Source: an uncultured Candidatus Saccharibacteria bacterium (lineage in GTDB: Bacteria; Patescibacteriota; Minisyncoccia; JACQLN01). From it: 64,000 bases of DNA. The notes beneath the pieces were generated by a model, which worked only from the letters and a program-made list of their open reading frames with translations, was not told where the DNA came from and searched no databases. A program made the position numbers and the translations under genes. Location of the stretch: contig CAYIPG010000001.1 in assembly GCA_964365305.1 (NCBI GenBank), forward strand, positions 2,214-66,213, read 5' to 3'. Each line of letters starts with the position of its first letter. The stretch's first letter is position 1. Positions 24,772 to 50,973 of the stretch are shown piece after piece.

Positions 24772-26172
24772 TTACATATTAGACAATATAAAATTAGCCG
24801 TCCTTTCCCCCGCCCTGCCATCTAAAATAGAGCACTGTTCTTTAACTAACCTGGTTCTGGCATTTTCATCTATAGATGGATTCTCTAGATATTTATTAAT
24901 CCAACGAACCATCTCCTCCTTGTCGCTAACCAATTTTATTGCGCCGGTTTTTAACGCGTTTAAATAATGTGTCATTTTATAGAGTTCTGTGGGAGATCTA
25001 TATACCGATAAAGGTTCGGCTAATTCAAAATTAATATTTATTACCGGTTTGTTAAAAATAGAAGCATCAATGCACAAGCTAGAAGCGTAAGAAACTAAAA
25101 CATCGCAATGATATAAGCTATTTATAAGCATCTCTATATCTTTTGGGCTTAAATCCCAATCAATGCCGGCGCCTATCGGCATGTGATTTGAGAATCTTAT
25201 TCCAGGAATATCAAAAACTATGTTCTTTCTTTTTCTAACTTCGCCAATTTCGACAAAATCATTTGGCTGGAATCTCACAAACAACTGCGCGTTCTTAATA
25301 ACATTTTGTTCAATAAGCGCTTGTAAATAATCAATCATAAGCCATCTTGAGCTAATGAAACGTTTAGCCAAGGGAGCATAAAAAACAACTTTTTTGTTTG
25401 GATCTCCGCCTGTTTGTTTAAAAAAATCAGATCGACTTATTTTTTTCTGGTTAATATATTGATCATAATGGGGCACTCCGCCAATAAAAATATCCTTGCT
25501 TGGTAAATCTGCGTAATTAATAGCGTCTGTTTTTACCAAATCATTGTAGACAATTAATTTATCTGGCAATACCCTCAAAGCGCACCGACCGGTAATTTTA
25601 TCCCATGAATTTGCTAAAGCAAAAGTTTTAACGCCCCTTTTTCTAGCTTCCCTCAATAAAGACGCTTCTCTATCATCAAATGGATGGGCCGAGACGACGG
25701 CAATTGGCCTGTATTTATCAAAAAAAACATTGAATGCAGAATCATCAATCAGCAATATATCTAAAAAACGATACAATCTCCTAACAAGACGCCGGGCAAG
25801 TATACGATTCAGCAACCACCCGCCCCATAATCTAAAAAGATTTTTATGTGTTTCAAATGCCAACTTGCGTCTCCAATCTATGGTAGCTGTATTAATCATC
25901 TTAAATTTAAGGGAACCAAAAAACCGTTGCCATAAACTATGCTCGGTTTTGGAAACAATTTCATAAAATACTCTTGGATTGTTAAATTGCCGCTGATAAA
26001 AGTTTATTTTATTTTTTGTATTTACAAAAAAAACTATCTTAATAACCGGATTGGCAATCAGGGTTTTGAAAATATCCGTTCTTAAGATATTTTTAGCTTC
26101 CACTCCTTGAAAAATGGTTATAAATATGGTCTTAAAATCATTCATAAAAAACTGCGGAAAAATACCGCACAC
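24772..26172 (-). CDS. TagF-like CDP-alditol phosphotransferase family GT-B protein (paralog 1 of 4).
   Basis: VVFYAPLAKRF (cf. YAPTWR) and CDVLVSYASSLCIDASIFNKPVININFE...Y (cf. TagF DILITDYSS..FD...KP.IFY) motifs. 466 aa. Confidence 0.5.
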   Translation of the reverse strand: MCGIFPQFFMNDFKTIFITIFQGVEAKNILRTDIFKTLIANPVIKIVFFVNTKNKINFYQRQFNNPRVFYEIVSKTEHSLWQRFFGSLKFKMINTATIDWRRKLAFETHKNLFRLWGGWLLNRILARRLVRRLYRFLDILLIDDSAFNVFFDKYRPIAVVSAHPFDDREASLLREARKRGVKTFALANSWDKITGRCALRVLPDKLIVYNDLVKTDAINYADLPSKDIFIGGVPHYDQYINQKKISRSDFFKQTGGDPNKKVVFYAPLAKRFISSRWLMIDYLQALIEQNVIKNAQLFVRFQPNDFVEIGEVRKRKNIVFDIPGIRFSNHMPIGAGIDWDLSPKDIEMLINSLYHCDVLVSYASSLCIDASIFNKPVININFELAEPLSVYRSPTELYKMTHYLNALKTGAIKLVSDKEEMVRWINKYLENPSIDENARTRLVKEQCSILDGRAGERTANFILSNM

Positions 26173-26258
26173 TGAATAAATATGTATATTTTTATAACTT
26201 ACTGAATAATGGAGCGGTTTTATGGGTTAATGTTTATTCTAAAAAATACTTGGATAAA

Positions 26259-27458
26259 TCACCAACTTATTTGAATTGAAGTTGTTTTTTTATCATTAAG
26301 TTTAGTCAAAAAATCAGGATTTAATTTATAATAATCATTCTTTGTGTTCCATTCTAAAAAATTGGAGATATTAAAAAGAATTTTGCCCATAGTAACTTCT
26401 GTAGAATGCATCCCATCAAACATATAAAGATCGTTCAAACCTAAAGATGCTAAATCGGAATAATCAAAAAACTGAAACCCAAACTCATCAAATAATAATG
26501 GAATCCTGGCTTGAAAATTGTTAAATAAATCCCGCTGATAAACAGAACTTTTCAACTCTTTTATTACTTCTGATGAAAACGGCGTTGCTAAACCTACAAC
26601 TTTTATACCTTTTTTTTTGCTAATCTCTAGAAATTCAGCCAAAAGATTGAATCTATCTTCGCTAAAAAAACTACCCTGTTCAAATGGATCCGTACCATTA
26701 TTAATCCGATCCAAAACTTTTTCGCCGTCAATAAACTTAATTTCATTCGCCATCTCTTGAATATTGTGCCCATATTGATAACTGCCATCCGAACGAAAAC
26801 CGTCCCCAAACAACAACGCATTCAAACCGATAGCCGACTTACTTTCAATAGGTTCTTGCTCGTCAACTACTTTTTTAAAGATGTATATCGGATTTTTTGC
26901 TATTTGTAAAAACAAATACCTAGCAACATAAAGATGCGCTTTCCACTGATACGCTTCTTCTTTTTTACTTAAATCTTCCGATAATCCATAAATCAAGTCA
27001 TTTTTCTCGCCAAGCCAATAAAAATCAACACCTAAAATTATTGTCTTGGGTTTGGCTTCGTCTGGCAGTAATTTTATAAAATCAATCAGGTCAGCAATAT
27101 TATGAATTAAGCCGCCGGCATTATAGAATTTTTCACTGTCGTCAAACATTTCTTGGCGAATTTGCATAACGCGCGAAGAACCAAGAACTAAAACATCCGG
27201 CTTTTTTGATAAAATAGTTAAGTATTTATATGTCCTCAAAGATTGATCGGCTATTTTGCGACCAAAAAGAATATCCTGCCTACTCTTGGTCTGCAAACTA
27301 ATAACCCTTTTTATCGGCAAGAGTTCTCCCGAATAAAAAATAACCGCTTCAAGAATAAAAAAAATAATCACAAGCGGCAACCAAAACAAAAAGATATTTT
27401 TCAAAAAAAGTTTGAGAGTTTTCGGATATTTAGCCATAAACAAACCTCCGCACAACAA
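26259..27458 (-). CDS. DltD-like membrane-anchored SGNH-type acyl-transfer protein.
   Basis: 399 aa. An N-terminal TM helix is followed by VLVLGSSRVMQ, closely matching the DltD catalytic-serine motif LLVLGSSEL. Size and topology match DltD (about 390 aa). Confidence 0.55.
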   Translation of the reverse strand: MLCGGLFMAKYPKTLKLFLKNIFLFWLPLVIIFFILEAVIFYSGELLPIKRVISLQTKSRQDILFGRKIADQSLRTYKYLTILSKKPDVLVLGSSRVMQIRQEMFDDSEKFYNAGGLIHNIADLIDFIKLLPDEAKPKTIILGVDFYWLGEKNDLIYGLSEDLSKKEEAYQWKAHLYVARYLFLQIAKNPIYIFKKVVDEQEPIESKSAIGLNALLFGDGFRSDGSYQYGHNIQEMANEIKFIDGEKVLDRINNGTDPFEQGSFFSEDRFNLLAEFLEISKKKGIKVVGLATPFSSEVIKELKSSVYQRDLFNNFQARIPLLFDEFGFQFFDYSDLASLGLNDLYMFDGMHSTEVTMGKILFNISNFLEWNTKNDYYKLNPDFLTKLNDKKTTSIQISW

Positions 27459-27478
27459 ACTGTCGCGAAGTTATTAAA

Positions 27479-27886
27479 TTAAAATTGAAAATAAATAAAG
27501 GGATTATAATTATACACGCCGAACAATAAGATCACAGCAACAACAAGATAATAAATCAACCACCTAAGCCAAGATGGATAATCATCTATCTGTAAAGGAT
27601 GCTCTTTTCTTCTCTGTATCCATTCCACCACAATGAAACCCGCAATAATAAATAATCTTTTTGGATAAATTGTCCCGATATTAAATAGATTAAATTCCAA
27701 AGCTATTTTTTTTACCACATAAAACGCTTCATTTATTGTGTTGGCTCTGAAAAATATCCATCCAAACAAAACAAGAATAAATGTAAATAATATAGCTGGG
27801 ATATCTTTAAGCGAAGCAACGGTATTTGATTCAAATTTATTAATTAATTCTTCTGACTTTGACGCGGAATGTTTGTTTCCATCCAT
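27479..27886 (-). CDS. Small integral membrane protein (3 TM), possibly DltX-like.
   Basis: 135 aa. The C-terminus PFIYFQF resembles the conserved C-terminal aromatic FIYxQF-type motif I recall for DltX. This is weak evidence. Confidence 0.3.
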   Translation of the reverse strand: MDGNKHSASKSEELINKFESNTVASLKDIPAILFTFILVLFGWIFFRANTINEAFYVVKKIALEFNLFNIGTIYPKRLFIIAGFIVVEWIQRRKEHPLQIDDYPSWLRWLIYYLVVAVILLFGVYNYNPFIYFQF

Positions 27887-27925
27887 AATATTAAGTTAGT
27901 TATTTTAGTATTAAATTTATTATAT

Positions 27926-28690
27926 TCACATCATATGCAACCCACCGTCAATTGGAATATTCAAACCGGTAAGATATTCCGCATTGTCGCTTAATAAAAA
28001 TTTGGCTAAACAAGCCACATCCTTATTATTTACCAGCCGTTTTAATGGGGTTTGTGATTCTATCAATTTAATAAAGGTTTCTGGATATATCGTGGAAATA
28101 CCCTCTCCACTAACACCAGGAGATATCATATTAACCCTTATTTTTCTAGAAGCAAGCTCATTTGCTAAACAACGAACTAGACCAAATTGCCCATATTTTC
28201 CAACCGTGTAACTAAACAAACGGGCCGGAGGAACATTAAATAAACACGCTGAACCAATTACTAAAACACTTTTCAATGGATGGTCTTCCTCAATAAGCTT
28301 TGTAATTGTAAGCCATAAACCTTTTATCTGGACAGCAAACTGTATCTCAAAATTATTCCAATCGTCTTTATTGATTGTTCTAAATTCCGTTGAAACGCCG
28401 ACTGTGTAAACCAAGTTATTAAATTTTATTTGACTTGAACCAATAATTTTTTTAACTTGCGACTCATTGGTGATGTCTAATTGCGCGGTAATTAATGTGC
28501 TTTTTTTGGATTTTGATAATTTAATTAATTCTAAAAGACAACTTTCTTTTTCTTGACGAAAAAAAGTAAGAAATAGATTATGCCCGGCAAGCAGTAACTC
28601 ATGAGCTATTGTTTTGCCAAAAGTGCTGGTGCCGCCAATTATTAGTGTGTTGGGCTTGATCATAGTTTTAAATATATTTAACCTTGGCAA
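27926..28690 (-). CDS. Short-chain dehydrogenase/reductase (FabG-like ketoreductase).
   Basis: TLIIGGTSTFGKTIA glycine-rich NAD(P)-binding motif; 254 aa classical SDR length. Confidence 0.7.
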   Translation of the reverse strand: MPRLNIFKTMIKPNTLIIGGTSTFGKTIAHELLLAGHNLFLTFFRQEKESCLLELIKLSKSKKSTLITAQLDITNESQVKKIIGSSQIKFNNLVYTVGVSTEFRTINKDDWNNFEIQFAVQIKGLWLTITKLIEEDHPLKSVLVIGSACLFNVPPARLFSYTVGKYGQFGLVRCLANELASRKIRVNMISPGVSGEGISTIYPETFIKLIESQTPLKRLVNNKDVACLAKFLLSDNAEYLTGLNIPIDGGLHMM

Positions 28691-29096
28691 TACCGTTAAC
28701 CACTTCTTCGTTATTTTGATTTATGATGACAGTTTCAATTTCTAATAAATAAACCGAATTAATCTTATTTTTTATCTTACCCCTAACAGTGACAGTTTCA
28801 CCAATAAAAACCGGCTTTTTAAAATTAATATTTTGCGATAAATACAAATTATGATTTTTAAAAAACTTGCCTACTAAGGTTGAAAAAAATGCCGCTAAAA
28901 GCATCCCATGCACGACAGGTTCTAAAAAATCCTTACTTTTAGCAAATTTTTTATCGCGATGAAGTAAATTTTTATCTCCCGATAGAGAAATAAAATCCAT
29001 TACCTTGTTTTTACTAATAGTCGTTTTGAAAAACGCGACATCCCCGACTTTTATTTTTTCCCAAATATCTTTCTGGGGTATTTTTTTAACATACAT
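28668..29096 (-). CDS. MaoC-like hotdog-fold dehydratase/hydratase.
   Basis: 142 aa. SGDKNLLHRDKKFAKSKDFLEPVVHGML resembles the MaoC/(R)-hydratase hotdog active-site region (D/H...H-G). Confidence 0.6.
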   Translation of the reverse strand: MYVKKIPQKDIWEKIKVGDVAFFKTTISKNKVMDFISLSGDKNLLHRDKKFAKSKDFLEPVVHGMLLAAFFSTLVGKFFKNHNLYLSQNINFKKPVFIGETVTVRGKIKNKINSVYLLEIETVIINQNNEEVVNGIAKVKYI

Positions 29097-29325
29097 ATTT
29101 TACATTATATTTATCTAAAACTTTTTTAATATCTCCCACATTTTTAACCGCCATAAGATCATCCATATCAAATCTGACACCACTAGCTTTTTCCAGCTCA
29201 ACCATCATCATTATAGCATTAAAAGAATCCCATGTTGGCGTGTTGGTTGGAGAAATTTCATCATTTATTTTGTTGCTGGGGATTTCCAATATTTTTGCCA
29301 GTATATCGTATAATTTTTCTTTCAT
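29086..29325 (-). CDS. Acyl/peptidyl carrier protein (DltC/ACP-like).
   Basis: 79 aa. WDSFNAIMMMVELE contains the phosphopantetheine-attachment Ser in a DS(L/F) context followed by the helix-II acidic patch. Confidence 0.7.
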   Translation of the reverse strand: MKEKLYDILAKILEIPSNKINDEISPTNTPTWDSFNAIMMMVELEKASGVRFDMDDLMAVKNVGDIKKVLDKYNVKYVC

Positions 29326-29327
29326 AT

Positions 29328-31115
29328 TTAATGTTTATTGATTTCTATAAAACCATATTGATTAAACACATAATCATCCAAATCACGCTCCCAAATGTCT
29401 TCAGTTTCGGATGATTTTATTTTATGGAAATTAAAAATTTTATAAAAATCTTTAACCTGATTGTTTTTTAGCGTTGGTTTGTAACAGGCGCGTACTTTTT
29501 TCGGGTTTAATTTCTTAAGCTCGCTTAAGATAAACCCAAAAAACTGCTCTTCTACTTTCTTCCCCAAAACCCTACAACTAAGCAACATGGAATCTATCTC
29601 CCACCTATCCGGCATATCTTTGACCATACAAAATCCGGTAATACCGTATTCTCCAAATTTATCAACAACATCTAGCGCCCAAAGTTTATGGCCTGATTCA
29701 ATAAATTTTTTGATATCATCTTCTTGATAACGATGTGTGGTTAAATTAAATTGGTTTGTTTTTTGTGTTAATTGAGCGCTGCGCGGTATCAAAAAATCAT
29801 CAACTGCTTTTATCGAAATACATAAATTTAAATTATTTAAAAAAGTATCTAAATCTATAATTGCATCTTTATATTCTATTCTTTGTTTTTCTTGTAAATA
29901 CATCGCGCTCCGTTTCTTATCCTCTCCAGTAAACTCAAATGTATTGAATCCTTTATAATCCAGCAGAGTTTGGATATATTTCGTTGAATCGGTGGGCAAG
30001 TCCAAAACTGTGACATCCGGCAATGTTTGTTTTATTAACTCGCGGTTAGTCAGATCGTCATCAATAAACACCAAACTGTCCAAACCGACATTTAATTCTC
30101 TGGCTATTTCCTGCATATTCTTTGCTTTATTGTCCCAATTTATCTTGCTTACTATAATATCGTCTTTTCGCAAAACCATATACGGATGATGTAAAAATAC
30201 TTCTTCTACATCTTCTTGATTATTCTTGCTGTTAATCGCCAGCAATATGCCTCTTTTGCTTAAACTCAATAACAATTTCTGGAAATAATAAAACTGCTGC
30301 CCTTCGCCTGCTGGCGCTAATTTTATTCCGGCTAATCCATCTTCACCAATAACACCTCCCCATAATGTATTATCTAGATCAAGTACAATACATTTCTTCT
30401 TTTTGAAAGCCAGAGGCACAAGGTAAGATGTCAATTCTTCTGCTAACATTGGAATTGCTTCGGGAGATAATTTCATATCAGCCGTAAAAGAATATTTATC
30501 ATACCAAAAATCTTTTTTGCCTATGTATCCTAACCATTCATTAAAATTAAAAATGAAAACTTGTTTATCATTTTGATAAGTATTCAGTAAATTATTATTA
30601 TAGTCATCAATTATTCTATACCATCCATTATTGAGTTTGCTGTCAAAAATTCCAGTTACCGGCGGCCAAATTTTACTGGCATTGCTAATAATAATTTTTG
30701 CTTTAGTTTTACTTTTTATGTAACTTACAAGCTGTAATAATCCATCCTCCGTTTCATATTTAAATTTATTGAGTTCTTCATTAGTAATTTCATGGTGGCG
30801 ATATAAAATATCTTGATTTAAACCATGCAAATCGAGTAACAAAAAAATAATGTCTGGTTTAAATTCGTAAAGTTCACTACCCAGTATCTCTTGCTTCCAC
30901 TGTCCATATTTACCTTCGTAAACATCTAAAAAAATATCTTGAACAAATGATTTGGTTTTTAGGCATTCTGCCAATCCCTTAATAGTAAAGCTTGACAAAA
31001 GAGCTACATTTTTTGCTTCTTTATCTTTAGATATTTTATCAATTTCTTTGGCCCACCCAATGCATGATGCTATGGCATTTGACTCTAATTTTATTTTTTC
31101 TTTTGATATGTTCAT
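29328..31115 (-). CDS. FkbH-like HAD-superfamily (subfamily IIIC) protein, putative glyceryl-ACP-forming loading enzyme.
   Basis: 595 aa. The central CIVLDLDNTLWGG HAD motif I sits about 235 aa from the N-terminus with a downstream INSKNNQEDVEEVF (HAD IIIC). The C-terminal GNAT-like region (WEIDSMLLSCRVLGKKVEE) matches FkbH/OzmB-type domain order. Confidence 0.6.
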   Translation of the reverse strand: MNISKEKIKLESNAIASCIGWAKEIDKISKDKEAKNVALLSSFTIKGLAECLKTKSFVQDIFLDVYEGKYGQWKQEILGSELYEFKPDIIFLLLDLHGLNQDILYRHHEITNEELNKFKYETEDGLLQLVSYIKSKTKAKIIISNASKIWPPVTGIFDSKLNNGWYRIIDDYNNNLLNTYQNDKQVFIFNFNEWLGYIGKKDFWYDKYSFTADMKLSPEAIPMLAEELTSYLVPLAFKKKKCIVLDLDNTLWGGVIGEDGLAGIKLAPAGEGQQFYYFQKLLLSLSKRGILLAINSKNNQEDVEEVFLHHPYMVLRKDDIIVSKINWDNKAKNMQEIARELNVGLDSLVFIDDDLTNRELIKQTLPDVTVLDLPTDSTKYIQTLLDYKGFNTFEFTGEDKKRSAMYLQEKQRIEYKDAIIDLDTFLNNLNLCISIKAVDDFLIPRSAQLTQKTNQFNLTTHRYQEDDIKKFIESGHKLWALDVVDKFGEYGITGFCMVKDMPDRWEIDSMLLSCRVLGKKVEEQFFGFILSELKKLNPKKVRACYKPTLKNNQVKDFYKIFNFHKIKSSETEDIWERDLDDYVFNQYGFIEINKH

Positions 31116-31122
31116 ACTTAAA

Positions 31123-31461
31123 TTATCTCTTAAACGCTATAGCTATTCCAAAACTACTATCATGACTTATGCTTATTTGTATATCCTGTTTTGGCAAACC
31201 TTTTATTTTCACGCATGGCTGTCCACATACTTTATGCTTAATTTCAATTTGACCATGGTTATTTATTTCTTTTTTACCACATGCTTTAATCACAGCTTCT
31301 TTTGCGGCAAAAATTCCAGACAAATGTTCAGAAAATCTTACATTTGAAAAGCAATATTCCCATTCTTTCTTTGTATAAAATTTATCCCAAAATGGATAAT
31401 CTTTTTTCTTTATATTTTTAAACCTACTAATAGAGACAATATCTATTCCAATTCCAATCAT
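31123..31461 (-). CDS. acpS: Holo-ACP synthase (4'-phosphopantetheinyl transferase, AcpS type).
   Basis: 112 aa. MIGIGIDIVSISRF and AAKEAVIKA motifs of AcpS. Confidence 0.75.
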   Translation of the reverse strand: MIGIGIDIVSISRFKNIKKKDYPFWDKFYTKKEWEYCFSNVRFSEHLSGIFAAKEAVIKACGKKEINNHGQIEIKHKVCGQPCVKIKGLPKQDIQISISHDSSFGIAIAFKR

Positions 31462-31569
31462 AATTATTCCGCCTTAAAATAAACTACTTAACAATACCAT
31501 ACCATTATCAATCGGCTCTGTCAAAAAGCCAAGGTTTGGTTGCCATTCGTAGAAAAATATCTTGCTAAA

Positions 31570-32649
31570 CTAAAAAATTTTAATCTTTTTCCTAATATTT
31601 TTAATTATTGAACCCATGACTAAATAAAATCCAAATATGACTCCCATAAATATATAATTCCATCCAGCTCCATGCCATAAACCTATAAGCATAAAAGTAA
31701 TAAAGGTACTTGCATATATCCAGCTTTTTGTTTTGTTTTTCCGACTAAATACCAGGGGATAATAAAGATAATCTCTTAACCAAGTTGATAGTGAAATATG
31801 CCAGCGGCGCCAAAATTCTTCTATATTTCTTGAAAAGTAAGGATAGGAAAAATTTCTCATTAACTTAAAACCGAACAGTTTGGCCGTGCCAATCGCAATA
31901 TCAGAATATCCAGAAAAATCAGCATAAAGCTGGAAAGCAAAAAAGAAAGTGGCAATTAACAACTGATTGCCAGAAACATTTGATAAATTACTATATGTAT
32001 TATTTACAGCAATCGCTAACATGTCCGCTATAAATATTTTCTTAAAAAAACCCCATAGCATTTGCCGACAACCGTCAATAGCTTCTTCCATTTTAAATAC
32101 TCTTTCTCGCGCGAACTGCGTTAAAAAACTTTGCGCTCTATCTATTGGTCCAGCGATAAGTTGGGGAAAAAATGAAACAAATGCTAAAAACTCTGTAAAA
32201 TTACCGGCCGCAGGAATCTTGCGCCGATAAACATCAATGGCGTAACTTAATTCTTTAAAAGTATAAAAACTGATACCGACCGGTAAAATAATGTTAAGCG
32301 TAGTAACCGAAGTTAAAGCCATACCAGCAGACAAAAATAATCCCTGCAACGAACTAATAAAAAAGTTAAAGTATTTAAAAAAACCAAGGATGCCAAGGCT
32401 TGAAATTATAGTTATTGTTAAATAAATTTTGCGCCTTTGTGTATCGTCTGTGTTATGAATTTTCTTTCCCAAAAGAAAACTTATCGTGCTTGATATAAAA
32501 ATTAAAAATAGAAAACGCCAATCCCACCAACCATAAAAAATATAACTAACTATAAGAATAAATAAATTCTGCCTTGCTCTGTTCAATTTCCAGTAAATCA
32601 GGAAAACAAACGCTAAAAAAATTATAAATTCCAAAGAGTTAAAAAGCAT
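31570..32649 (-). CDS. MBOAT-family membrane-bound O-acyltransferase (DltB/AlgI-like).
   Basis: FWRRWHISLSTWLRDYLYYPL contains the invariant MBOAT His motif; multi-TM, 359 aa. Confidence 0.8.
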   Translation of the reverse strand: MLFNSLEFIIFLAFVFLIYWKLNRARQNLFILIVSYIFYGWWDWRFLFLIFISSTISFLLGKKIHNTDDTQRRKIYLTITIISSLGILGFFKYFNFFISSLQGLFLSAGMALTSVTTLNIILPVGISFYTFKELSYAIDVYRRKIPAAGNFTEFLAFVSFFPQLIAGPIDRAQSFLTQFARERVFKMEEAIDGCRQMLWGFFKKIFIADMLAIAVNNTYSNLSNVSGNQLLIATFFFAFQLYADFSGYSDIAIGTAKLFGFKLMRNFSYPYFSRNIEEFWRRWHISLSTWLRDYLYYPLVFSRKNKTKSWIYASTFITFMLIGLWHGAGWNYIFMGVIFGFYLVMGSIIKNIRKKIKIF

Positions 32650-32694: not shown

Positions 32695-34056
32695 TTATTG
32701 TAAAACCAGTTCGGATAACAAATCAGCTATCCTGGAAGCCGATTTACCATCCAGTTTCCCAATTTGTTCAACAACTAAACTATTACGCCCAGACCTATCC
32801 AGGCCAGAATCATTAAGATATATATTGATAGTGCGTATCATTTCGTCTGGGTCTTTAGCAACAAAACAAGCCCCAGTTTTAAGCATTTTCTTGGTATGCT
32901 CATAATATTCCGCAAAACGCGATACGCTTCCAAAAACAGGCTTTTGCTCTTGTCCGTCAAAAGATACCAGAACAATAGGTCTATCAAGCGCTGCCGCGTC
33001 AAGAACCAAACTGGAAGCATAAATAACAACCAAATCGCTATGATATAACGAATCAGCTAACGGTAAATCTTCATCCATGGTAACCTCCCAATCTGAATAA
33101 ATATCTTTTCTAAATGGAATGCCTGGTTTATATATAAAAAAATTATTATCCGGAGTAAAACCATCGAAAGAAACATAATCATTCGGCGGTAATCTTACTA
33201 AAAACTTAACACTGCCTGGTATTTTTTTATCCAAAAGAGACCTTTTCAATATATCCAGTAGCTGCCCATCTGTGTTGGCAAAACGCCGGCCAAGCGGACC
33301 GACAAAAATTAATCTGTCTGAAGGATTAAAACCAAGCTTTTTCAAAAAAATGTCTCTAGAACAATATTCTCTCCTGACATAATGATCCAGCTGAGGCAAT
33401 CCTGACACAAAAATGTTCCCCTCTTTCATGTCTTCATGCTCTAATGCCTCTTTTTTAATAACATTGTTTTGAACTATAAGTTTATCCGGCTTAATTCTAA
33501 AAAGGCCTTTGTTGGTAATGTTATCCCAAGATCTAACCATACCTACAGTTAGCACACCGCTTTTTTTGCTTGCGGCCAAAAGATAAACATCCATGTCATG
33601 AAAAATATCAGTGGAAAATAATAAAAATGGAGAATATTTGTTTAAATATTTCTCCATCAAACCGATATCCATAAAAATAAGATCCAACCAACGAACAAAC
33701 TTCTTAACAAAACCAAAATTGCCAAAAAACTTACCCAATATCCTTGAAAAATAAAAATGGATTGCGTTTTGGTCGGAAAGATACTTTTTCTTTTGATGAA
33801 AAAAACGAGTTGTGGTGTTTACTAATGACCCGCCCAGGTATCTAAATAAAATATCTTTTCTGCTTAATTTTAAACTCGGTATTCCTTCTATGACTATATT
33901 TCCAAACTCAAATTTTTTCTTAAAATATTCTTCCTTATAGTCCGGCACCAATACAACCACCCTAATTCCGCTATTGACCAATAAACTAGCGATCCCGGTT
34001 TCCAAAATATTTCTAGATATAAAAGGATTAAAACTTGTAATAAATATTGTTTTCAC
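32695..34056 (-). CDS. TagF-like CDP-alditol phosphotransferase family GT-B protein (paralog 2).
   Basis: LIFVGPLGRRF and DLVVIYASSLVLDAAALDRPIVLVSFD motifs. Overall colinear with the 24772, 41207 and 49603 proteins. Confidence 0.5.
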   Translation of the reverse strand: MKTIFITSFNPFISRNILETGIASLLVNSGIRVVVLVPDYKEEYFKKKFEFGNIVIEGIPSLKLSRKDILFRYLGGSLVNTTTRFFHQKKKYLSDQNAIHFYFSRILGKFFGNFGFVKKFVRWLDLIFMDIGLMEKYLNKYSPFLLFSTDIFHDMDVYLLAASKKSGVLTVGMVRSWDNITNKGLFRIKPDKLIVQNNVIKKEALEHEDMKEGNIFVSGLPQLDHYVRREYCSRDIFLKKLGFNPSDRLIFVGPLGRRFANTDGQLLDILKRSLLDKKIPGSVKFLVRLPPNDYVSFDGFTPDNNFFIYKPGIPFRKDIYSDWEVTMDEDLPLADSLYHSDLVVIYASSLVLDAAALDRPIVLVSFDGQEQKPVFGSVSRFAEYYEHTKKMLKTGACFVAKDPDEMIRTINIYLNDSGLDRSGRNSLVVEQIGKLDGKSASRIADLLSELVLQ

Positions 34057-42562: not shown

Positions 42563-43377
42563 TGAGAACGATACCCACAACAAAATCCGGTAATTATACA
42601 AGCGATGCCAACCTATTAAAAAGAAAAAAATTTGCCAAACTATTCCAACCAAAAATAAATCTGGTTAAAGAAATAGTTTTCTTGTTAAAATTGAAAGGTG
42701 GCGAATGTATTCTGGATGCGGGTTGTGGTAATGGCGATTTGCTTATAGAGATAAGAAATAAGTACAAACACCGTGGTGATTTATATGGTGTGGATATTGC
42801 CGAAGGAATATTGCAACAAGCTATCTTTTTAAATAAGAAAACGAAATCAAAAATAAACTTTCAGAGAGCGGATGTCAAAAACTTAAAACTGCCTTCCGAG
42901 CATTTTGATATAGTGATACTCAAACATGTCCTTCATAATGTAGCTAAACCCACACAGGCAATTGAGGAGTGCCGCCGAGTTCTTAAAACAAATGGCCGAT
43001 TGGTTATAGTTGTAACCGGCAAAAAATCAAGATTGCTATTAAGACAGCTAAAACAAAAAATTGCCGCCATTCTTGGCTTAGATTTTTTCCCAGACGCCGA
43101 GAAAGATATTAACCTGGAGAGTATTTCCGACTATCTGAAATCTTCACTTTGGAACTTTAGAATTAAACAACTTAAAAGCGTCCTGCGCTTAAAAAATCCC
43201 AAGCCATACGTTGATTATGTGGATAGTGGCCGGGATTTTTGGGCTAGCGGAATAAAAGATGAGAAATGGCAGGAAATATTAAGTTTTTCTCAAAAATATT
43301 TTGATCAGATCATTAAAAAGAAAGGACAGATATCAGATCAAAGCATTTTAGGAATTGTGATTGCCATTAAAAAATAA
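42562..43377 (+). CDS. Class I SAM-dependent methyltransferase.
   Basis: ILDAGCGNGDLL motif I and VILKHVLHNV motif. Confidence 0.65.
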   Translation: MRTIPTTKSGNYTSDANLLKRKKFAKLFQPKINLVKEIVFLLKLKGGECILDAGCGNGDLLIEIRNKYKHRGDLYGVDIAEGILQQAIFLNKKTKSKINFQRADVKNLKLPSEHFDIVILKHVLHNVAKPTQAIEECRRVLKTNGRLVIVVTGKKSRLLLRQLKQKIAAILGLDFFPDAEKDINLESISDYLKSSLWNFRIKQLKSVLRLKNPKPYVDYVDSGRDFWASGIKDEKWQEILSFSQKYFDQIIKKKGQISDQSILGIVIAIKK

Positions 43378-44400: not shown

Positions 44401-45939
44401 GTGATCAATGATTTTCGAGTGCTGATGCTCTATCCCAACTATCAACACGAGATGATGGTACCGCCGGCCTTGGCGTTATTTTCCTCTCTGTTGAAGTGGG
44501 AGGGCTTTAAGGTGGATCTGTTTGACACCACCAATTACAAGATTGACACCGGTGGGGTGGATTCGGAGAAAAGTAAAATGGCCAACTTAACGGTGCGGCC
44601 GTTTAAGTCGACAACCTTGATCAAAAAGGATGATGTCTACACTGATTTTCGCCAAAAGATCAACTCCTTCAGCCCCGATCTACTTTTGGTAACCGCTACC
44701 GAAAACATGTTTTTGGTGGCCATGAAGTTGCTCAACTCGGTTGAGGACACTGGCGTGCCTGTTGTTCTAGGCGGGGTTTTTGCTACTTTCGCCCCGGACT
44801 TAGCCATGCGCTGGCGGGAAGTGGACATGTTGTGCGTGGGCGAGGGAGAGCAGGTCATTGTGGAATTATGCCGCCGCATGAACCGGGGTGAGGATTCTTC
44901 CAGCATTCCCGGACTCTGGGTTAGAGGAAAAGATGGCCTGATTAAAAAAAATCCCCTGGGTCCTCGAGTGAATATGGATGAAAACCCGTTGCCCGATTTT
45001 ACTCTTTTTGAGGATTCTAGATTCTACCGTCCTATGGCCGGTAAGATTTTGAGAATCTTTCCCGCAGAAACTCATCGGGGCTGTCCCTTTACTTGCGCTT
45101 TTTGCAATTCGCCCGATCAGGACAGATTATACGGTCAAGCCACCGGGCAAAAATTCTTTCGCAAGAAAAGGTTTGATAAGATTCACGAGGAACTTTTGTT
45201 TTGCCGCGATGTCTGGCGGGCCCAGTATATCTTTTTCTGGGCGGATACTTTTTTCGCCTGGAGCGAAGAAGAGTTCGATCAGTTCTGCGAAATGTACGCC
45301 GACATCAAACTGCCTTTCTGGTGTCAAACCCGACCCGAAACAGTAGTGGAGCGCCGCATCAAAAAACTAAAAGATGTTGGCATTCACAGAATGGGTTTTG
45401 GCATTGAGCATGGCAACTTTCAATTCAGAAAGGATGTGGTTGATCGCCGCTATACTAATGAACTGGTGATAGCAAGAATGAGAATTCTGGTGGAGCAGGG
45501 TGTTGAATTTAGCGTCAATAACATCATCGGCTTCCCCGACGAAACGCGGGAATTGTCTTTTGATACTATTGAACTAAATCGGCATATTCCGAGCGACACC
45601 ATGAGCTGTTCAATCTTTGTTCCTTTTCATGGGACAAGATTGAGGGAATTGTGTGTCGAAAAGGGCTACATCCATCCTGATGTTATCTGCCCCACCAACT
45701 CCGACGATACGGTTTTAATTATGCCGCCGCCTTTTATGAGCAAAGAACAAATGAAGGGTTTGCGGCGGGTGTTCGCCATGTATGTTAAATTCCCCAAAGA
45801 ACGCTGGCCAGAAATTCGGCAGGCCGAAGAGCTGACTCCTGAGGGGGATGAGGTTTGGGAGAAGTTAAGAAAGGAGTTTGTTAAAACCTTCTTTGCTCCG
45901 CCCGAAACCGACATCGAAAAGATCAATAATGCTGTTTAA
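44401..45939 (+). CDS. B12 (cobalamin)-binding radical SAM protein, putative class B radical-SAM methyltransferase.
   Basis: GTG start. N-terminal B12-binding-like domain (RVLMLYPNYQ...), then CPFTCAFC (CxxxCxxC) radical-SAM cluster motif; 512 aa. Confidence 0.8.
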   Translation: MINDFRVLMLYPNYQHEMMVPPALALFSSLLKWEGFKVDLFDTTNYKIDTGGVDSEKSKMANLTVRPFKSTTLIKKDDVYTDFRQKINSFSPDLLLVTATENMFLVAMKLLNSVEDTGVPVVLGGVFATFAPDLAMRWREVDMLCVGEGEQVIVELCRRMNRGEDSSSIPGLWVRGKDGLIKKNPLGPRVNMDENPLPDFTLFEDSRFYRPMAGKILRIFPAETHRGCPFTCAFCNSPDQDRLYGQATGQKFFRKKRFDKIHEELLFCRDVWRAQYIFFWADTFFAWSEEEFDQFCEMYADIKLPFWCQTRPETVVERRIKKLKDVGIHRMGFGIEHGNFQFRKDVVDRRYTNELVIARMRILVEQGVEFSVNNIIGFPDETRELSFDTIELNRHIPSDTMSCSIFVPFHGTRLRELCVEKGYIHPDVICPTNSDDTVLIMPPPFMSKEQMKGLRRVFAMYVKFPKERWPEIRQAEELTPEGDEVWEKLRKEFVKTFFAPPETDIEKINNAV

Positions 45940-45948
45940 CAGCTTCAC

Positions 45949-46048: not shown

Positions 46049-46786
46049 CTATTTCCCAAGGACATAAACTATTTTAGATCCCCATCTCTTCCTAAGTTTA
46101 CCATCCAATCCGAATCCGGAAGCTAAATTTAATATAAATCTTCTGGCTCTGCCTTTTACACCCATAAAAATCCCCTCATTTACAAAATATTTTTTATCAA
46201 TCAACTTGAAATATTTAAGTACGGTCTTATTGAAAATAGCGGGAGTAAAAATTGAGATATGATTATTTTTTTCATGGAAACCAGAAATCTCGCCATATTT
46301 ATAAAAATACCTCCGACTCAAAAAAGAATCAGTATTAACTAAAGTAAAAATAAATATTCCTCGTTTTTTTAATATTCTATGCACTTCCCTTATAAAATTA
46401 TGGGGATTCTCCAAGTGAGGCAGAACGCACCACGCTGTAATAATGTCAAAAAAAGAATCGCCATGCGGGATTTTGTCGTAATTTAGGTCAACAATTTTAA
46501 AATCTTTTAAAAAACGGCGATTCTCATCATTAATATAATCATCAACATCCAAACCATAAACATTTTTTATACCAACATCTACAACTAATTGCCTAATAAA
46601 ATCGCCGCTGGCCGTCCCGCAATCTAAAACATTTACATCACCGCTGTTTCCAAAAAAAAACCTCTTATAATCAAAAACTATGCCTGAACAAAACTTATTC
46701 CTAACAGTCGGCCCTTTATAAGTCCTGAGCCTGTCTTTTAAAACTTGGTCGGAACGTATTTCTTCCGTGGTTAAATATTTGGCCAT
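46049..46786 (-). CDS. Class I SAM-dependent methyltransferase (paralog of 48879-49619).
   Basis: VLDCGTASGDF motif I and ITAWCVLPHLENP, shared with the paralog. Confidence 0.55.
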   Translation of the reverse strand: MAKYLTTEEIRSDQVLKDRLRTYKGPTVRNKFCSGIVFDYKRFFFGNSGDVNVLDCGTASGDFIRQLVVDVGIKNVYGLDVDDYINDENRRFLKDFKIVDLNYDKIPHGDSFFDIITAWCVLPHLENPHNFIREVHRILKKRGIFIFTLVNTDSFLSRRYFYKYGEISGFHEKNNHISIFTPAIFNKTVLKYFKLIDKKYFVNEGIFMGVKGRARRFILNLASGFGLDGKLRKRWGSKIVYVLGK

Positions 46787-46789
46787 AGA

Positions 46790-47842
46790 TTAATATAAAT
46801 CCTCAAGTTTTATTTGTTCATCCTCTTCTATCATTTTTCTGATTTTTTTGCCAACCACCCTATCAATCATGGCGGGAGACAAACCGCCCTTGCCCGGCCG
46901 CTTAAAATCTATCATGTCTTTTTTCAAAACTGTGCCGACAGAGAGATCGCGGTTTGCCACGATACTCTGACCAGCCCAATTCCTGCCTTTCTCTAAGGTC
47001 TTTATTCTTTTTTTTTCAGTGTGTTGCTTTAAGGCAGTCTCGATATCCCTTATTTGTTTGACCATCAGTTTAAACTCTTGAGGCAACAACGCGCCTGGAT
47101 TATCCAAAGATCGGGGATCTGTTTTATCAAAAGTCAAATGCTTTTCTACTATACAAGCTCCCCTGGCCACGGCGGCTAGCGGTATATGCCAACCAACGCT
47201 GTGATCCGAAATACCGACCGGAACATTATACTTATCCCTAAAATATTCCATTCTTTTTAGGTTGGCGTGCTCATACGGGGTGGGATAAATAGAAACACAA
47301 TGTAGTATGATAATATCCTTAACACCATTTTTTCGTAAAGTATTAATGGCCTTATCAACTTCTTCGTTGGTCTGCACGCCAAAAGATATAATCACCGGCT
47401 TTTTTCTTTTGGCGATATTCTTTAAAAACTCATAGTTATGCGCCTCGCCCGAACCAACTTTAAAGTAAGGTTGCTTGATGATGTTGTCCAGAAAATCCAA
47501 GCTTTCGTTGTCATGCGCGGTTGCAAAAACTGGAATACCGATATTCTGGGCGTGGTTAAAAATTTTTTCCATCTGAACATCCGAAAATTCTTTATACTTC
47601 ATTCGCTCAAACCAATTATAACCAAGCTCTTTCTCTAACCTGTTGCTAACCTTTTTGCTCACCAATTTTTCGGTTTTGGTCGCTTGAAATTTAACTATAT
47701 CCGCTCCGGCTTCAAAAGCGGCTTCAATTTGTTTTTTAGCTAAATCAATCTGACCATAATTAGTGACTCCACCCTCGCAAATTATAAAACATGGCTTACC
47801 TTCTCCAACAATCATCTTGCCTAATTTTATTTTATTTTCCAT
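46790..47842 (-). CDS. Third NeuB-family nonulosonic acid synthase, with SAF domain.
   Basis: VKFQA, LHCVSIYPTP, GISDHS and EKHLT motifs, with C-terminal GTVLKKDMIDFKRPG. Confidence 0.8.
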   Translation of the reverse strand: MENKIKLGKMIVGEGKPCFIICEGGVTNYGQIDLAKKQIEAAFEAGADIVKFQATKTEKLVSKKVSNRLEKELGYNWFERMKYKEFSDVQMEKIFNHAQNIGIPVFATAHDNESLDFLDNIIKQPYFKVGSGEAHNYEFLKNIAKRKKPVIISFGVQTNEEVDKAINTLRKNGVKDIIILHCVSIYPTPYEHANLKRMEYFRDKYNVPVGISDHSVGWHIPLAAVARGACIVEKHLTFDKTDPRSLDNPGALLPQEFKLMVKQIRDIETALKQHTEKKRIKTLEKGRNWAGQSIVANRDLSVGTVLKKDMIDFKRPGKGGLSPAMIDRVVGKKIRKMIEEDEQIKLEDLY

Positions 47843-48810
47843 TTTTTTATTTCTTTTAACACTAATTCGCTTATATATACTTGCGTTCTCTCATTAGCTT
47901 CCTTGGTTGAACCGCCAAGATGAGGAACTATTATCAAATTACTGTTTTTCTTGGCGTACTCAACCAAGGGATTACTTCTTATATGGCCGCCATCCGGCAT
48001 TTCATTGCTTAGAGTGTCCAGAGCCGCGCCGGCTATACCCCCATCATTTAACGCATTAAACAGAGCCGCTTCGTCCGTAATTTCTCCCCGGGCAGTATTT
48101 ATAAAAATAGCGCTCGGCTTCATCATTTTAAAATGTTTTTCTTTAATCATCCCGAAAGTTGAATCATTGTAAACCGAGTGCAAGGAAACAATATCTGATT
48201 TTCTCAAAACATCCGCCAAACCCGCCTTACGAACACCATATTCTTTCATCTCCTTGCGACTAATAAAAGGGTCGTGGGCTAAAACCTTCATACCAAAGGC
48301 CATGCTGTATTTAGACACCATTTTACCCAAACGGCCAAAACCGATAAGACCGATAGTTTTGTTATAAAGTTCAACCCCGGCATATTTTTTTCTATCCCAT
48401 TCGCCTTTTTTAATTGAGTCAAAAGCTGCCGGTATATTCCTTAACAGAGCCAACACCAAAGCAATAGTTTCCTCGGCTGTGGAGTAAGTTTTTTTAAGAA
48501 CGGGAGAACCGGCCTTAATATTAATTATATTAATACCTCTCCTGCGACATTCATCCAAATCAATATAACGCAGTTGTGTTGTCCTGGAACCCACCAATTT
48601 CAAGTTGATGGCTTTGTCCAAAACATCCTTACTAAGCTTAACTTCAAGCCCGGTGACTAATACATCAGCTGATGCGAGATTACTAAAAAATGTTTTATTT
48701 GAAACAAAATCAATAACCCTGCCTCCTTTGGCAAGAATGTTTTTAGCTCTTAAATTGAAATCTTTTTCAGCAATTAGTATTGTAAGCATGGCCCATGTAT
48801 AATTTCTCAT
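47827..48810 (-). CDS. D-isomer-specific 2-hydroxyacid dehydrogenase family (second copy).
   Basis: IGLIGFGRLGKMVSKYSMAFGMKV and HLGGST motifs. Confidence 0.75.
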   Translation of the reverse strand: MRNYTWAMLTILIAEKDFNLRAKNILAKGGRVIDFVSNKTFFSNLASADVLVTGLEVKLSKDVLDKAINLKLVGSRTTQLRYIDLDECRRRGINIINIKAGSPVLKKTYSTAEETIALVLALLRNIPAAFDSIKKGEWDRKKYAGVELYNKTIGLIGFGRLGKMVSKYSMAFGMKVLAHDPFISRKEMKEYGVRKAGLADVLRKSDIVSLHSVYNDSTFGMIKEKHFKMMKPSAIFINTARGEITDEAALFNALNDGGIAGAALDTLSNEMPDGGHIRSNPLVEYAKKNSNLIIVPHLGGSTKEANERTQVYISELVLKEIKKWKIK

Positions 48811-48878
48811 ATACTATAACATCTAGCAACCATGTCTTGTTTTTGGATGTTATAGTAATAGATTAACATAAAATAAAA

Positions 48879-49619
48879 ATGCGCTATTTTACAGCTGATG
48901 AAATAAAAAACACAAATAGAAAAGAGGTCACAGAAGTATTAAAAGGGTGCGCCGGAAAAAATGTAAAATATTATTTTGGAATAAAGGTGTTTAAAAAATA
49001 CTCCGATTTTGCATTGATAACGCACGATGCCAAAATATTAGACCTCGGAACAGCCAGCGGAGCTTTTACAAAACAGCTATACAATTTGGGCTATAAAAAT
49101 ATATTCGCGCACGATATAGACAATTACCTCCCTAATGAGGTGAAAGAAATTGTGAAAGAATACAAACTATCGGATCTAAGCACAGAAAAAAACCCTTGGG
49201 ATGATAACTTTTTTGACGCTATAACCGCTTGGTGTGTTTTACCGCATTTAGAAAATCCGTTCCATTGCGCTAGAGAGCTCTGGCGTGTTCTAAAACCCGG
49301 TGGAATATTTATGTTCACAACTCCTCATATTCTTTCAAAACCAAGCATGGCTTTCTTTCTAAAAAAGAAATATTTCGCGGGGTACAGACCAACCAATAAC
49401 CATATAGCGTTGCTTCCTTTAAGTATTTTGGAGAAAACTATTTTTAGAGGTTTTGAGCTTATTGGAATAGAATATCTGGTTACACCAAAAGTAAACCGGG
49501 GCGCTAAGGGTAAATTAAGGAAATTACTGATTGACTTAAGTAAGTATAATAAATGGCTAAAAAAATTTCTTGAAAAAAGATGGGCTTATAATATCTGCTA
49601 TATCATACGCAAAATTTAA
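48879..49619 (+). CDS. Class I SAM-dependent methyltransferase (paralog of 46049-46786).
   Basis: ILDLGTASGAF and ITAWCVLPHLENP. Confidence 0.55.
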   Translation: MRYFTADEIKNTNRKEVTEVLKGCAGKNVKYYFGIKVFKKYSDFALITHDAKILDLGTASGAFTKQLYNLGYKNIFAHDIDNYLPNEVKEIVKEYKLSDLSTEKNPWDDNFFDAITAWCVLPHLENPFHCARELWRVLKPGGIFMFTTPHILSKPSMAFFLKKKYFAGYRPTNNHIALLPLSILEKTIFRGFELIGIEYLVTPKVNRGAKGKLRKLLIDLSKYNKWLKKFLEKRWAYNICYIIRKI

Positions 49620-50973
49620 GCATGATTTTAGCCAATCTTTCGGCCGATTTTCCATCCCTTTTCCAGCAAATATCCTCGGCAACTTTTTTTCTTTCATCCA
49701 TGTCTAAATCAGGATCTGAAAGATAACCCTTTAGATATTGGGATAACTCGTTTTCGTTATAAGCAATTTTAACTCCCTTACTTTTTATTAACGGCTGTAA
49801 GTGTTCCAGTTTAAAGAATTTTCTAATACTTTCCTTCTCACTAACACTTTTTATCTTATCAAAACCTATAAGAATGACGGGTTTATCAAAAAATAACGCG
49901 TCCATAGCTATGGTTGATGGACCAGGCAACACAACATCGCTATTACAAATTAAATTCATAAGATGTTGATCCGCGTTTTTATCAAGCTCGCCCTTGCCAA
50001 AAAGCGTCTTTGGATAATCTAACTTAAAATTAGAAGGGAGTTTCAAACTACTTATATCTACTTGACCTATCACGGGCAATCTGATTAAAACTTGAACTTT
50101 GTTCGGATCCAAACATCTCAATAATTCAAGAACATACTCATTATAACTAACACTGTCTTTGCTAAATTGTTTCTGTAAGAAACTATCGGCAATAGTTATA
50201 AACAGTACGGTTTTTTTGCTTGGATCCAGACCAATTTTATTAAAAAAAACATCTCGAGGTGTTACCGCTATATTCAAGTAGTTATCATAGTGGGGAATAC
50301 CAACTATTTCTATGTTTTTCTCTGCTACTCTATTGTATTTTTCGCATTCCTCTTTCATAATCTCATTCTGTACAATAATCCTATCTGGAATTTCCCTAAT
50401 TATTCCCCGTCCGGTCAAATTATCCCACGATCTGACCATACCTACGACAAAAATACCTCTTTTTTTGGACTCTCTGATTAAGTCCAGATCGCTTTCCCCC
50501 TCGCTCCTATCAGTTATATCGGTTGAGAAAACTAAAACTGGATTATACTGGTCAAAATAAACGCCAAACCGGTTTTTAGGCAGAAAACAATAATCCAAAG
50601 TCCTTAGCGCGCCCTTAGCTAACTTAGAATTACCGAATAAGACCGTTAAAACACGGCTCATAAAATACTGAACCATTCCAGAAAATGTGTTTAGTTTTAA
50701 TCTTAATCTAAGAAAAATTTTAACAGTGTTGGTATTGAGTAAAGCGCGAGACAAAAAACCAAAAAAAATCTTAACCGTGGATAATGGCGGAACTATTACT
50801 CCTTCAATAATTAGATTGGCATGCCCAAAATTTTTCTCTAAGTAATTTTTTTCGCTCACCGGCGCCAATATCACTATCCTGACACTCCCAGAAGAGAGAA
50901 TCTTTAAAAAATCGGTGGCCAAGATATTTCTGACCACGAAATTAGAAAAAACGCTAACAAAAACTGTTTTCAT
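49603..50973 (-). CDS. TagF-like CDP-alditol phosphotransferase family GT-B protein (paralog 4).
   Basis: RSWDNLTGRGIIREIPDRIIVQN and SDVVLPGPSTIAMDALFFDKPVILIGFD motifs. Confidence 0.5.
   Translation of the reverse strand: MKTVFVSVFSNFVVRNILATDFLKILSSGSVRIVILAPVSEKNYLEKNFGHANLIIEGVIVPPLSTVKIFFGFLSRALLNTNTVKIFLRLRLKLNTFSGMVQYFMSRVLTVLFGNSKLAKGALRTLDYCFLPKNRFGVYFDQYNPVLVFSTDITDRSEGESDLDLIRESKKRGIFVVGMVRSWDNLTGRGIIREIPDRIIVQNEIMKEECEKYNRVAEKNIEIVGIPHYDNYLNIAVTPRDVFFNKIGLDPSKKTVLFITIADSFLQKQFSKDSVSYNEYVLELLRCLDPNKVQVLIRLPVIGQVDISSLKLPSNFKLDYPKTLFGKGELDKNADQHLMNLICNSDVVLPGPSTIAMDALFFDKPVILIGFDKIKSVSEKESIRKFFKLEHLQPLIKSKGVKIAYNENELSQYLKGYLSDPDLDMDERKKVAEDICWKRDGKSAERLAKIMLKFCV

Follow-up and report, generated by a model that had tools for sequence, protein, structure and literature searches.

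Which activated sugar is used by bacterial proteins that resemble the teichoic acid polymerase TagF but are encoded among genes for nonulosonic acid synthesis? This question is raised by a 64,000-nucleotide stretch of DNA from an uncultured Candidatus Saccharibacteria bacterium (GenBank assembly GCA_964365305.1, contig CAYIPG010000001.1, positions 2,214 to 66,213; here, the window), which carries four paralogous TagF-like genes. A first-pass annotation of the window had assigned their products to the cytidine diphosphate (CDP)-alditol phosphotransferase family, had seen no gene for making CDP-glycerol or CDP-ribitol, and had proposed that the donors are either made elsewhere or are of a different kind, linked to cytidine monophosphate (CMP) or CDP. 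Our analysis favors a donor of this different kind in its ulosonic-acid form, whereas nothing supports the other form suggested, a phosphodiester-linked donor made by pairs of NeuA-like and dehydrogenase enzymes. Specifically, the sequences suggest that the four paralogs are CMP-nonulosonate glycosyltransferases, probably inverting, on a TagF-like scaffold, a reading to which we assign a probability of roughly 0.55. We favor it because the genes are linked to NeuA, NeuB, and NeuC genes, because the TagF histidines are missing, and because the nearest curated relative is the BFO_1060 family of Tannerella forsythia.

The four open reading frames (ORFs) are present as annotated, at 24772 to 26172 (paralog 1, minus strand), 32695 to 34056 (paralog 2, minus), 41207 to 42562 (paralog 3, plus), and 49603 to 50973 (paralog 4, minus). 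Their products are colinear and align from end to end, with 27 to 31% identity to paralog 1 and 39 invariant columns. Paralog 1 is listed at 466 amino acids (aa), but its true start is probably the ATG at 26145, which gives 457 aa, because no homolog has the 9 residues that the longer version adds at the N terminus. Paralogs 2, 3, and 4 have 453, 451, and 456 aa, respectively. The start of paralog 2 overlaps the upstream gene for a 653-aa membrane protein by 4 nucleotides (nt), and paralog 4 lies directly downstream of a NeuA-like gene (50981 to 51805). Both motifs on which the family assignment had been based were examined. The "YxSS...D...KP(I/V)(I/L)" block is found in all four proteins, whereas the "YAPxxR"-like motif is literal in paralog 1 only (FYAPLAKRF), the others reading GPLGRR, TTVPPH, and ITIADS.

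To what extent are these proteins related to TagF? Glyphos_transf (PF04464) is the sole Pfam match of paralogs 1 to 4, at 41.1, 20.2, 29.0, and 33.2 bits, respectively. With a gathering cut-off of 22.1, three of the four pass this hidden Markov model and paralog 2 falls slightly under it. The match is confined to the C-terminal half, starting at residue ~184 to 225 and covering profile positions ~127 to 367. Membership in the CDP-alditol phosphotransferase family was therefore overstated: the nucleotide-binding half is TagF-like, but the rest is not recognizably so. None of the four proteins matched sialyltransferase or KpsC/KpsS capsule families instead, and they show neither a Capsule_synth-type signature nor the modified GT-B architecture with a reduced N-domain that is seen in KpsC/KpsS (GT107), WbbB (GT99), and KpsS1 (GT118).

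Profile comparisons agree with this picture. A family profile built from 58 sequences matched, in the PDB, a 49-residue stretch of TarL only (E = 0.002). Alignment of the family by hhalign with four canonical proteins taken from plasmid records (Staphylococcus epidermidis TarL and TarF and homologs from Listeria and Leuconostoc) gave a probability of 96.8% (E = 2e-10), pairing residues 181 to 464 with TarL residues 305 to 561. Based on the weak half-length Pfam matches, the short TarL match, and this hhalign result, the homology to TagF at the sequence level is real but remote, and it is concentrated in the nucleotide-binding domain. A single-sequence PDB search with paralog 1 returned nothing meaningful, and a Foldseek search of the PDB yielded UDP-GlcNAc 2-epimerases for the most part, which reflects the GT-B fold in general and does not help to choose between candidate functions. 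The fold is GT-B, like that of the TagF/TarL catalytic domain.

Several features are shared with TagF, TagB, TarF, and TarL (PF04464; PDB 3L7I and 8VA1), namely, the C-terminal nucleotide-binding domain, the cytosine-pocket proline, the SS, KP(V/I), and DG..R blocks, and an inserted helical region, basic and amphipathic, of a kind that could bind membranes. In the window paralogs, the insertion spans residues ~78 to 142, with 9 to 14 Lys plus Arg against 1 to 5 Asp plus Glu and ~47% hydrophobic residues, and a predicted model folds it into four helices. Judging from their sequences, the four paralogs are probably peripheral membrane proteins of the GT-B type. Unlike TagF and TarL, however, the family lacks the polymerase-type N-terminal domain.

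The most telling differences concern the catalytic residues. TagB, TagF, and TarL require two invariant histidines, as established in the cryo-electron microscopy study of TarL (PMC10901376). The TarL base, H300, stacks on W299 in the loop after strand beta15 and corresponds to H444 of TagF; H433 contacts the alpha-phosphate, and P395 gives space for the cytosine N4 (PMC10901376). W299, H300, P395, and H433 are all invariant across the canonical members that we aligned. We took a census of these positions in 167 family members, comprising the 4 window paralogs and 163 members from 80 other species. In place of the W-H pair, the family has an S-W-D motif (S189-W190-D191 in paralog 1; SWD is likewise present in paralogs 2 and 4), in which the Asp is conserved in 167/167 members and the Trp in 162/167. 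No invariant His was found in the N-domain among the 167 members, and the dipeptide WH is absent from all four paralogs. The second essential histidine (H433 of TarL, H584 of TagF) is not conserved in the family. TarL H433-P434 aligns by hhalign with Q302-P303 of paralog 1, and the H433 column holds Pro in 64, Gln in 45, and His in 37 of the 167 members. In the window, paralogs 1 to 4 have Q, P, H, and P, so that paralog 3 (RLHPRD) is the sole paralog with H-P here, while paralog 1 reads R300-F-Q302-P303, paralog 2 RLPP, and paralog 4 RLPV. The comparison of active-site histidines with TagF thus went against a canonical mechanism, since the base is absent throughout and the second histidine remains in paralog 3 only. 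Other parts of the site are retained: P267 aligns with the cytosine-pocket P395 and is kept in 122/167 members, R300 is invariant, and H402 is near-invariant.

The S-W-D motif most likely occupies the TarL W-H position. In a predicted model, the S-W-D loop follows the strand at 182 to 186, just before two strands that are anchored by hhalign. With the anchored "G.P..D" linker as the starting point of a backward count, the strand at 182 to 186 corresponds to TarL beta15. Depending on the alignment register, the position of the catalytic histidine is taken by D191 or A176, with no His either way. A forced profile alignment of the N-domain (hhalign in global and low-mact modes) matched a TarL strand to a family helix, at a low probability of 21 to 46%, and was not relied on.

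We next turn to the genomic setting, in which TagF/TarL genes neighbor TarIJ or TagD genes and the window family neighbors NeuABC genes. The absence of TagD, TarI, and TarJ from the window, as first annotated, was borne out: CTP_transf_like (TagD), IspD (TarI), and Zn-ADH (TarJ) domains are absent from all window ORFs, and authentic TarI and TarJ probes from staphylococcal and Leuconostoc plasmids found no match among the six-frame ORFs. Canonical CDP-alditol genes do not lie just outside the window either, since no TagD, TarI, or TarJ gene was found in the ~10 kb of flanking contig (~3 kb on one side and ~7.5 kb on the other). To place the window in context, we compared 80 related loci, each from a different GTDB species of Patescibacteria (39 of the loci are full length). 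Each locus comprised a family member with up to 10 kb on either side, 1.33 Mb in all, and neighboring genes were detected by phmmer (E ≤ 1e-5) with proteins of the window as probes. Of the 80 loci, 53 have NeuA-like genes, 48 have NeuB, 52 have NeuC, and 35 have the dehydrogenase. One or more of NeuA, NeuB, and NeuC are encoded no farther than 10 kb from a family member in 65 of the 80 loci and in 35 of the 39 that are full length. The TarI and TarJ probes had 0 matches in the same 1.33 Mb, so that a source of CDP-glycerol or CDP-ribitol was found neither in the window and its flanks nor in the related loci. In contrast, of four canonical TagF-family loci that we inspected on plasmids, two have TarI/TarJ-type genes directly upstream of the polymerase gene.

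TagD-like matches in the related loci were limited to three ~150-aa HIGH-motif proteins and one domain embedded in a NeuA/NeuB protein, which we do not take as evidence for CDP-glycerol synthesis; the TagD and IspD probes served as a screen only. The three HIGH-motif proteins are free-standing (loci L070, L077, and L079). The embedded domain belongs to a 930-aa fusion (locus L053, 94 to 2886, plus strand) that joins a NeuA-like domain, a HIGH-motif (TagD/RfaE-like) nucleotidyltransferase, a NeuB-like domain, and a cupin-like C terminus.

Within the window, the nonulosonate genes all lie on the minus strand. The three NeuA-family genes that had been annotated are real, in that each matches CTP_transf_3 and has PseF as its best NCBIfam model, at 153 to 169 bits over the full length. 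They encode NeuA/PseF-type CMP-nonulosonate synthetases at 8223 to 8948 (CTP_transf_3, 85 bits; PseF, 169 bits over the full length, under the cut-off of 205.7), 18900 to 19622, and 50981 to 51805. NeuB-type nonulosonate synthases are encoded at 10204 to 11313 (with a SAF domain) and 46790 to 47842, and a divergent NeuB-like protein without a SAF domain is encoded at 11310 to 12281. Two NeuC-type hydrolyzing UDP-sugar 2-epimerases, at 8945 to 10207 and 53764 to 54921, score 330 and 321 bits, respectively, against NeuC_NnaA, exceeding its cut-off of 235.9.

Two D-2-hydroxyacid dehydrogenases resembling phosphoglycerate dehydrogenase are also encoded on the minus strand, at 17944 to 18903 and 47827 to 48810. 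The first-pass annotation had paired both of them with NeuA-like genes. This holds for the former, which is coupled to the second NeuA-like gene by a 4-nt overlap, but the latter overlaps the NeuB gene at 46790 to 47842 and lies ~2.2 kb from the NeuA-like gene at 50981 to 51805. In 19/38 occurrences across Patescibacteria, a NeuA-like gene adjoins a D-2-hydroxyacid dehydrogenase gene, often with an overlap of 3 to 10 nt. To our knowledge, a 2-hydroxyacid dehydrogenase has been assigned no role in any canonical nonulosonate pathway. By analogy with Pse5Am7Gra of T. forsythia, which carries an N-glyceroyl group, a simpler role for the enzyme would be to supply D-glycerate or D-lactate for N-acyl groups, and an FkbH/acyl carrier protein (ACP) module in the window points in the same direction.

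Is there a characterized protein family that combines these features? BFO_1060_trans (NF046086) is the top NCBIfam model for all four paralogs, at 51.6, 32.2, 71.1, and 51.9 bits for paralogs 1 to 4, respectively. The best score, that of paralog 3, covers nearly the full length, and in paralogs 1 to 3 the best-matching stretch lies in or across the N-terminal S-W-D region. In T. forsythia, deletion of BFO_1060, Tanf_01245, or TFUB4_00887 removes the terminal pseudaminic or legionaminic acid derivative from the O-glycan, and the proteins have a "TagB" domain and are encoded beside the nonulosonate locus, with a methyltransferase gene in between (PMC5420450). The BFO_1060 family resembles the window paralogs in size (~445 aa), in its TagB-like GT-B domain, and in its position at a nonulosonate locus with a methyltransferase; in the window, paralogs 3 and 4 each adjoin a methyltransferase gene. 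Its HP motif is also present in paralog 3 and is absent from the other three. The two families differ in their hosts (Bacteroidota versus Patescibacteria) and in copy number, the window family having two to four copies per locus. Moreover, the BFO_1060 family is implicated in transfer by T. forsythia genetics, whereas the role of the Patescibacteria family is predicted from sequence and gene context. A further likeness, by domain and context, is to SpsB of Bacillus subtilis, a TagB/TagF-like protein of a monoderm host whose gene lies beside the CMP-legionaminic acid (Leg) pathway; the Joint Genome Institute (JGI) name for one member of the window family is "TagB/SpsB family".

Several observations weigh against assigning a nonulosonate donor to the paralogs. 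All of the BFO_1060 scores are far under the 200-bit cut-off of that model. The motifs of bacterial sialyltransferases are largely missing, with [DE][DE]G in none of the four paralogs and HP in paralog 3 only, and the family has no detectable homology to the GT-B sialyltransferases (GT38 polysialyltransferase, GT52, and GT80). The position of the proposed base is itself affected, since hhalign sets the S-W-D segment in a different register from W-H. The family is usually multicopy, with three copies in 18 and two copies in 13 of the 39 full-length loci, but the related loci commonly have a single NeuA/NeuB/NeuC set, which leaves room for other donors in some of the paralogs or for more than one nonulosonate in the glycan. 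Finally, SpsB, despite its TagB domain and its place beside CMP-legionaminic acid genes, is not required for Leg on B. subtilis spores (PMC7439481), and adjacency to nonulosonate genes is therefore no proof of function.

From the established homology, residue patterns, and gene association, we infer a donor, a base, and an acceptor for the paralogs as follows. The NeuC/NeuB/NeuA sets, whose genes are present, would supply nonulosonic acids of the sialic or legionaminic type, activated with CMP and probably carrying N-acyl and O-methyl modifications. The CMP-sugar would bind to the C-terminal domain of each paralog, as suggested by its TarL-like nucleotide-site residues. The Asp of S-W-D could then serve as the general base toward a hydroxyl group of the acceptor, a glycan linked to undecaprenyl phosphate, which the basic amphipathic four-helix insertion may hold at the membrane. 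R300 and H402 might handle the phosphate and the leaving group. The nonulosonate would be transferred and CMP released, with the paralogs perhaps differing in donor, acceptor, or linkage. The finished unit would presumably be flipped by the Wzx-like protein of the locus and then handled by its Wzy_C protein with tetratricopeptide repeats (TPR).

Three other explanations have to be weighed. The paralogs could be conventional GT-B enzymes whose donors are UDP-, GDP-, or dTDP-sugars produced by the same loci, with the nonulosonate genes simply co-resident in one large surface-glycan locus. Generic GT-B enzymes match the fold equally well, a single NeuABC set frequently accompanies three paralogs, the dispensability of SpsB for Leg transfer fits such a view, and in some loci a family member is found with NTP_transferase and heptose-type genes (GHMP kinase, SIS, and TAL) and with no NeuA within 10 kb. 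We nevertheless consider this explanation rather unlikely, given that the only relatives recognizable by sequence, TagF/TarL and BFO_1060, are families that use cytidine nucleotides, that the cytosine-pocket proline is mostly kept, that NeuA, NeuB, or NeuC accompanies nearly all of the full-length loci, and that at least seven conventional GT2/GT4 enzymes in the window already serve NDP-sugars.

Loss of both essential histidines, of which paralog 3 keeps the second only, argues in turn against genuine TagF-type phosphotransferases that would use CDP-alditols (or CDP-sugar-phosphates), made by genes elsewhere in the genome, to build a teichoic acid-like polymer. TagD, TarI, and TarJ were not found in any of the DNA surveyed beyond the HIGH-motif proteins and the NeuA/NeuB fusion, canonical loci can carry TarI/TarJ-type genes by the polymerase gene, and export here is of the Wzx/Wzy type rather than by a TagGH ABC transporter. 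Such a polymer stays conceivable because the locus has teichoic acid-style accessories, namely, a YfhO protein and a Dlt-like module with a membrane-bound O-acyltransferase (MBOAT) and an ACP. In addition, three of the paralogs pass the Glyphos_transf gathering score, the TagF-type "DG..S/G.R" and "SS...D...KP" C-terminal blocks are retained, and the organism, as a member of the Patescibacteria, is presumably monoderm. On balance, this explanation appears improbable. More improbable still is that the NeuA-like and dehydrogenase enzymes together make a cytidine-linked hydroxy acid or reduced ulosonate (e.g., CDP- or CMP-glycerate), from which the TagF-like enzymes add phosphodiester-linked acids. 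The conserved pairing of the two genes, the want of a canonical nonulosonate role for the dehydrogenase, and the altered TagF-like catalytic site, which implies a chemistry different from that of canonical TagF, would all suit it. However, the three cytidylyltransferases align over their full length with the PseF/NeuA model and sit with NeuB and NeuC genes, the dehydrogenase is absent from 45 of the 80 loci that retain TagF-like genes, and its possible role in N-acyl supply is simpler. On chemical grounds, too, a CMP-O-alkyl hydroxy acid, having neither an activated anomeric center nor a pyrophosphate, would be a poor glycosyl or phosphoryl donor.

The reading that we prefer, CMP-nonulosonate transfer, would extend to a large family. 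Relatives of the paralogs fall into 1,797 clusters at 50% identity with E ≤ 1e-30, and 4,746 with E ≤ 1e-10. All named relatives are Patescibacteria/Parcubacteria (Paceibacterota, Giovannoni-, Taylor-, Harrison-, and Sungbacteria), the remaining names being generic "bacterium" labels and one metagenome-assembled genome (MAG) titled "Bdellovibrionales". The window thus very probably comes from a bacterium of the candidate phyla radiation (CPR). In this family, the TagF-like domain is also found fused to an S-adenosylmethionine (SAM) methyltransferase (P0304) and to a polysaccharide deacetylase (P0258), and P0246 and P0260 (~900 aa) each consist of two TagF-like units in tandem. A bolder proposal, which we offer tentatively and hold to be doubtful at present, is that the S-W-D family consists of unrecognized glycosyltransferases that arose from the TagF scaffold by exchanging histidines for an Asp mechanism. 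Its multiple copies might prime, extend, and cap, as in TagB/TagF, a phosphate-free, nonulosonate-rich anionic wall polymer, teichulosonic acid-like, which would be the counterpart of wall teichoic acid in CPR bacteria.

That TagB-like proteins act as nonulosonate transferases has already been published for T. forsythia. What is new here is a large distinct family found only in Patescibacteria, the His-to-Asp change in the catalytic loop as its diagnostic, and the quantified link to NeuABC. Our literature search found no paper linking "glycerophosphotransferase" to nonulosonic acids, and the teichulosonic acid literature gave no gene-level information on TagF-like genes. Knowledge of nonulosonate transferases has been called "scarce" (PMC5420450), and a study of B. 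subtilis found no reports of legionaminic acid transferases (PMC7439481). If our reading is correct, ~1,800 sequence clusters of candidate transferases would be marked by S-W-D in place of W-H, and a phosphotransferase scaffold would be convertible to glycosyl transfer. It would also mean that ultra-small CPR bacteria spend ~58 kb on a nonulosonate-rich surface glycan, which bears on host-cell attachment. As a caution for annotators, the name "CDP-glycerol glycerophosphotransferase family protein" that these genes carry probably points to the wrong substrate.

The paralogs belong to one surface-glycan locus that fills nearly the whole window (~1.1 kb to 62.4 kb) and is largely encoded on the minus strand. 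The same sequence is also present on ~70-kb contigs of Hainich groundwater metagenomes and in the MAG GCA_038055065.1. The locus (1106 to 62370) amounts to ~58 kb in a CPR genome of presumably ~1 Mb, and its G+C content ranges from 0.31 to 0.46. Besides YfhO, Wzx, and Wzy_C-TPR genes, it contains at least 7 conventional GT2/GT4 genes and ~9 methyltransferase genes. One SAM methyltransferase gene (42562 to 43377, plus strand) lies immediately downstream of paralog 3, and another (48879 to 49619, plus) is convergent with paralog 4 and overlaps its 3' end. A Bac_transf initiating phosphoglycosyltransferase (1106 to 2494, minus), a Wzx-type flippase (Polysacc_synt_3; 54928 to 56328, minus), and a membrane protein of the Wzy_C type, resembling O-antigen ligases/polymerases and with TPR repeats at its C terminus (5960 to 8185, minus; relatives in 18/80 related loci), together account for a Wzx/Wzy-type route of initiation, flipping, and subsequent handling.

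Two paralogous membrane proteins, each with ~9 predicted transmembrane segments, adjoin TagF-like genes. The first (625 aa; 22833 to 24710, minus) is encoded directly downstream of paralog 1, and the second (653 aa; 34053 to 36014, minus) directly upstream of paralog 2. They have in common the motif "YRDE..Y.PRAREVYDGHFPP" and, in searches of Pfam and the PDB, no match or detectable relative. These proteins may be GT-C-like transferases or polymerases that partner paralogs 1 and 2.

Between paralogs 1 and 2 lies a set of minus-strand genes (26259 to 32649; ORFs at 26259 to 27458, 27926 to 28690, 28668 to 29096, 29086 to 29325, 29328 to 31115, 31123 to 31461, and 31570 to 32649). It resembles an extracytoplasmic acylation module of the Dlt type, with an FkbH-type loader in place of the DltA adenylase. 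FkbH makes glyceryl-ACP. The module also encodes a 79-aa ACP, a phosphopantetheinyl transferase, a MaoC dehydratase, a short-chain dehydrogenase/reductase, and a DltB-like MBOAT, and a 399-aa protein with a single transmembrane segment and no Pfam match occupies the DltD position. FkbH was found in 8/80 related loci; other loci have an AMP-binding enzyme and an ACP instead.

A 393-aa ORF (12542 to 13723, minus) adjoins the divergent second NeuB-like gene and has no Pfam or PDB sequence match. By eye, its C terminus is GT28/MurG-type GT-B-like, and the protein could be a PseG-like hydrolase or another transferase. The ORF at 26259 to 27458 likewise had no match in a PDB search. We considered whether the ORFs without Pfam matches (26259 to 27458, 12542 to 13723, 22833 to 24710, and 34053 to 36014) are further divergent TagF-like paralogs and rejected this possibility, with hhalign probabilities of <4%. 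Also inside the nonulosonate gene sets are genes for a B12-binding radical-SAM enzyme (44401 to 45939, plus) and a PAPS_reduct (PP-loop) protein (53050 to 53730, minus), each with relatives in 5/80 related loci, which may serve C-methylation and acetamidino-type modification of sugars.

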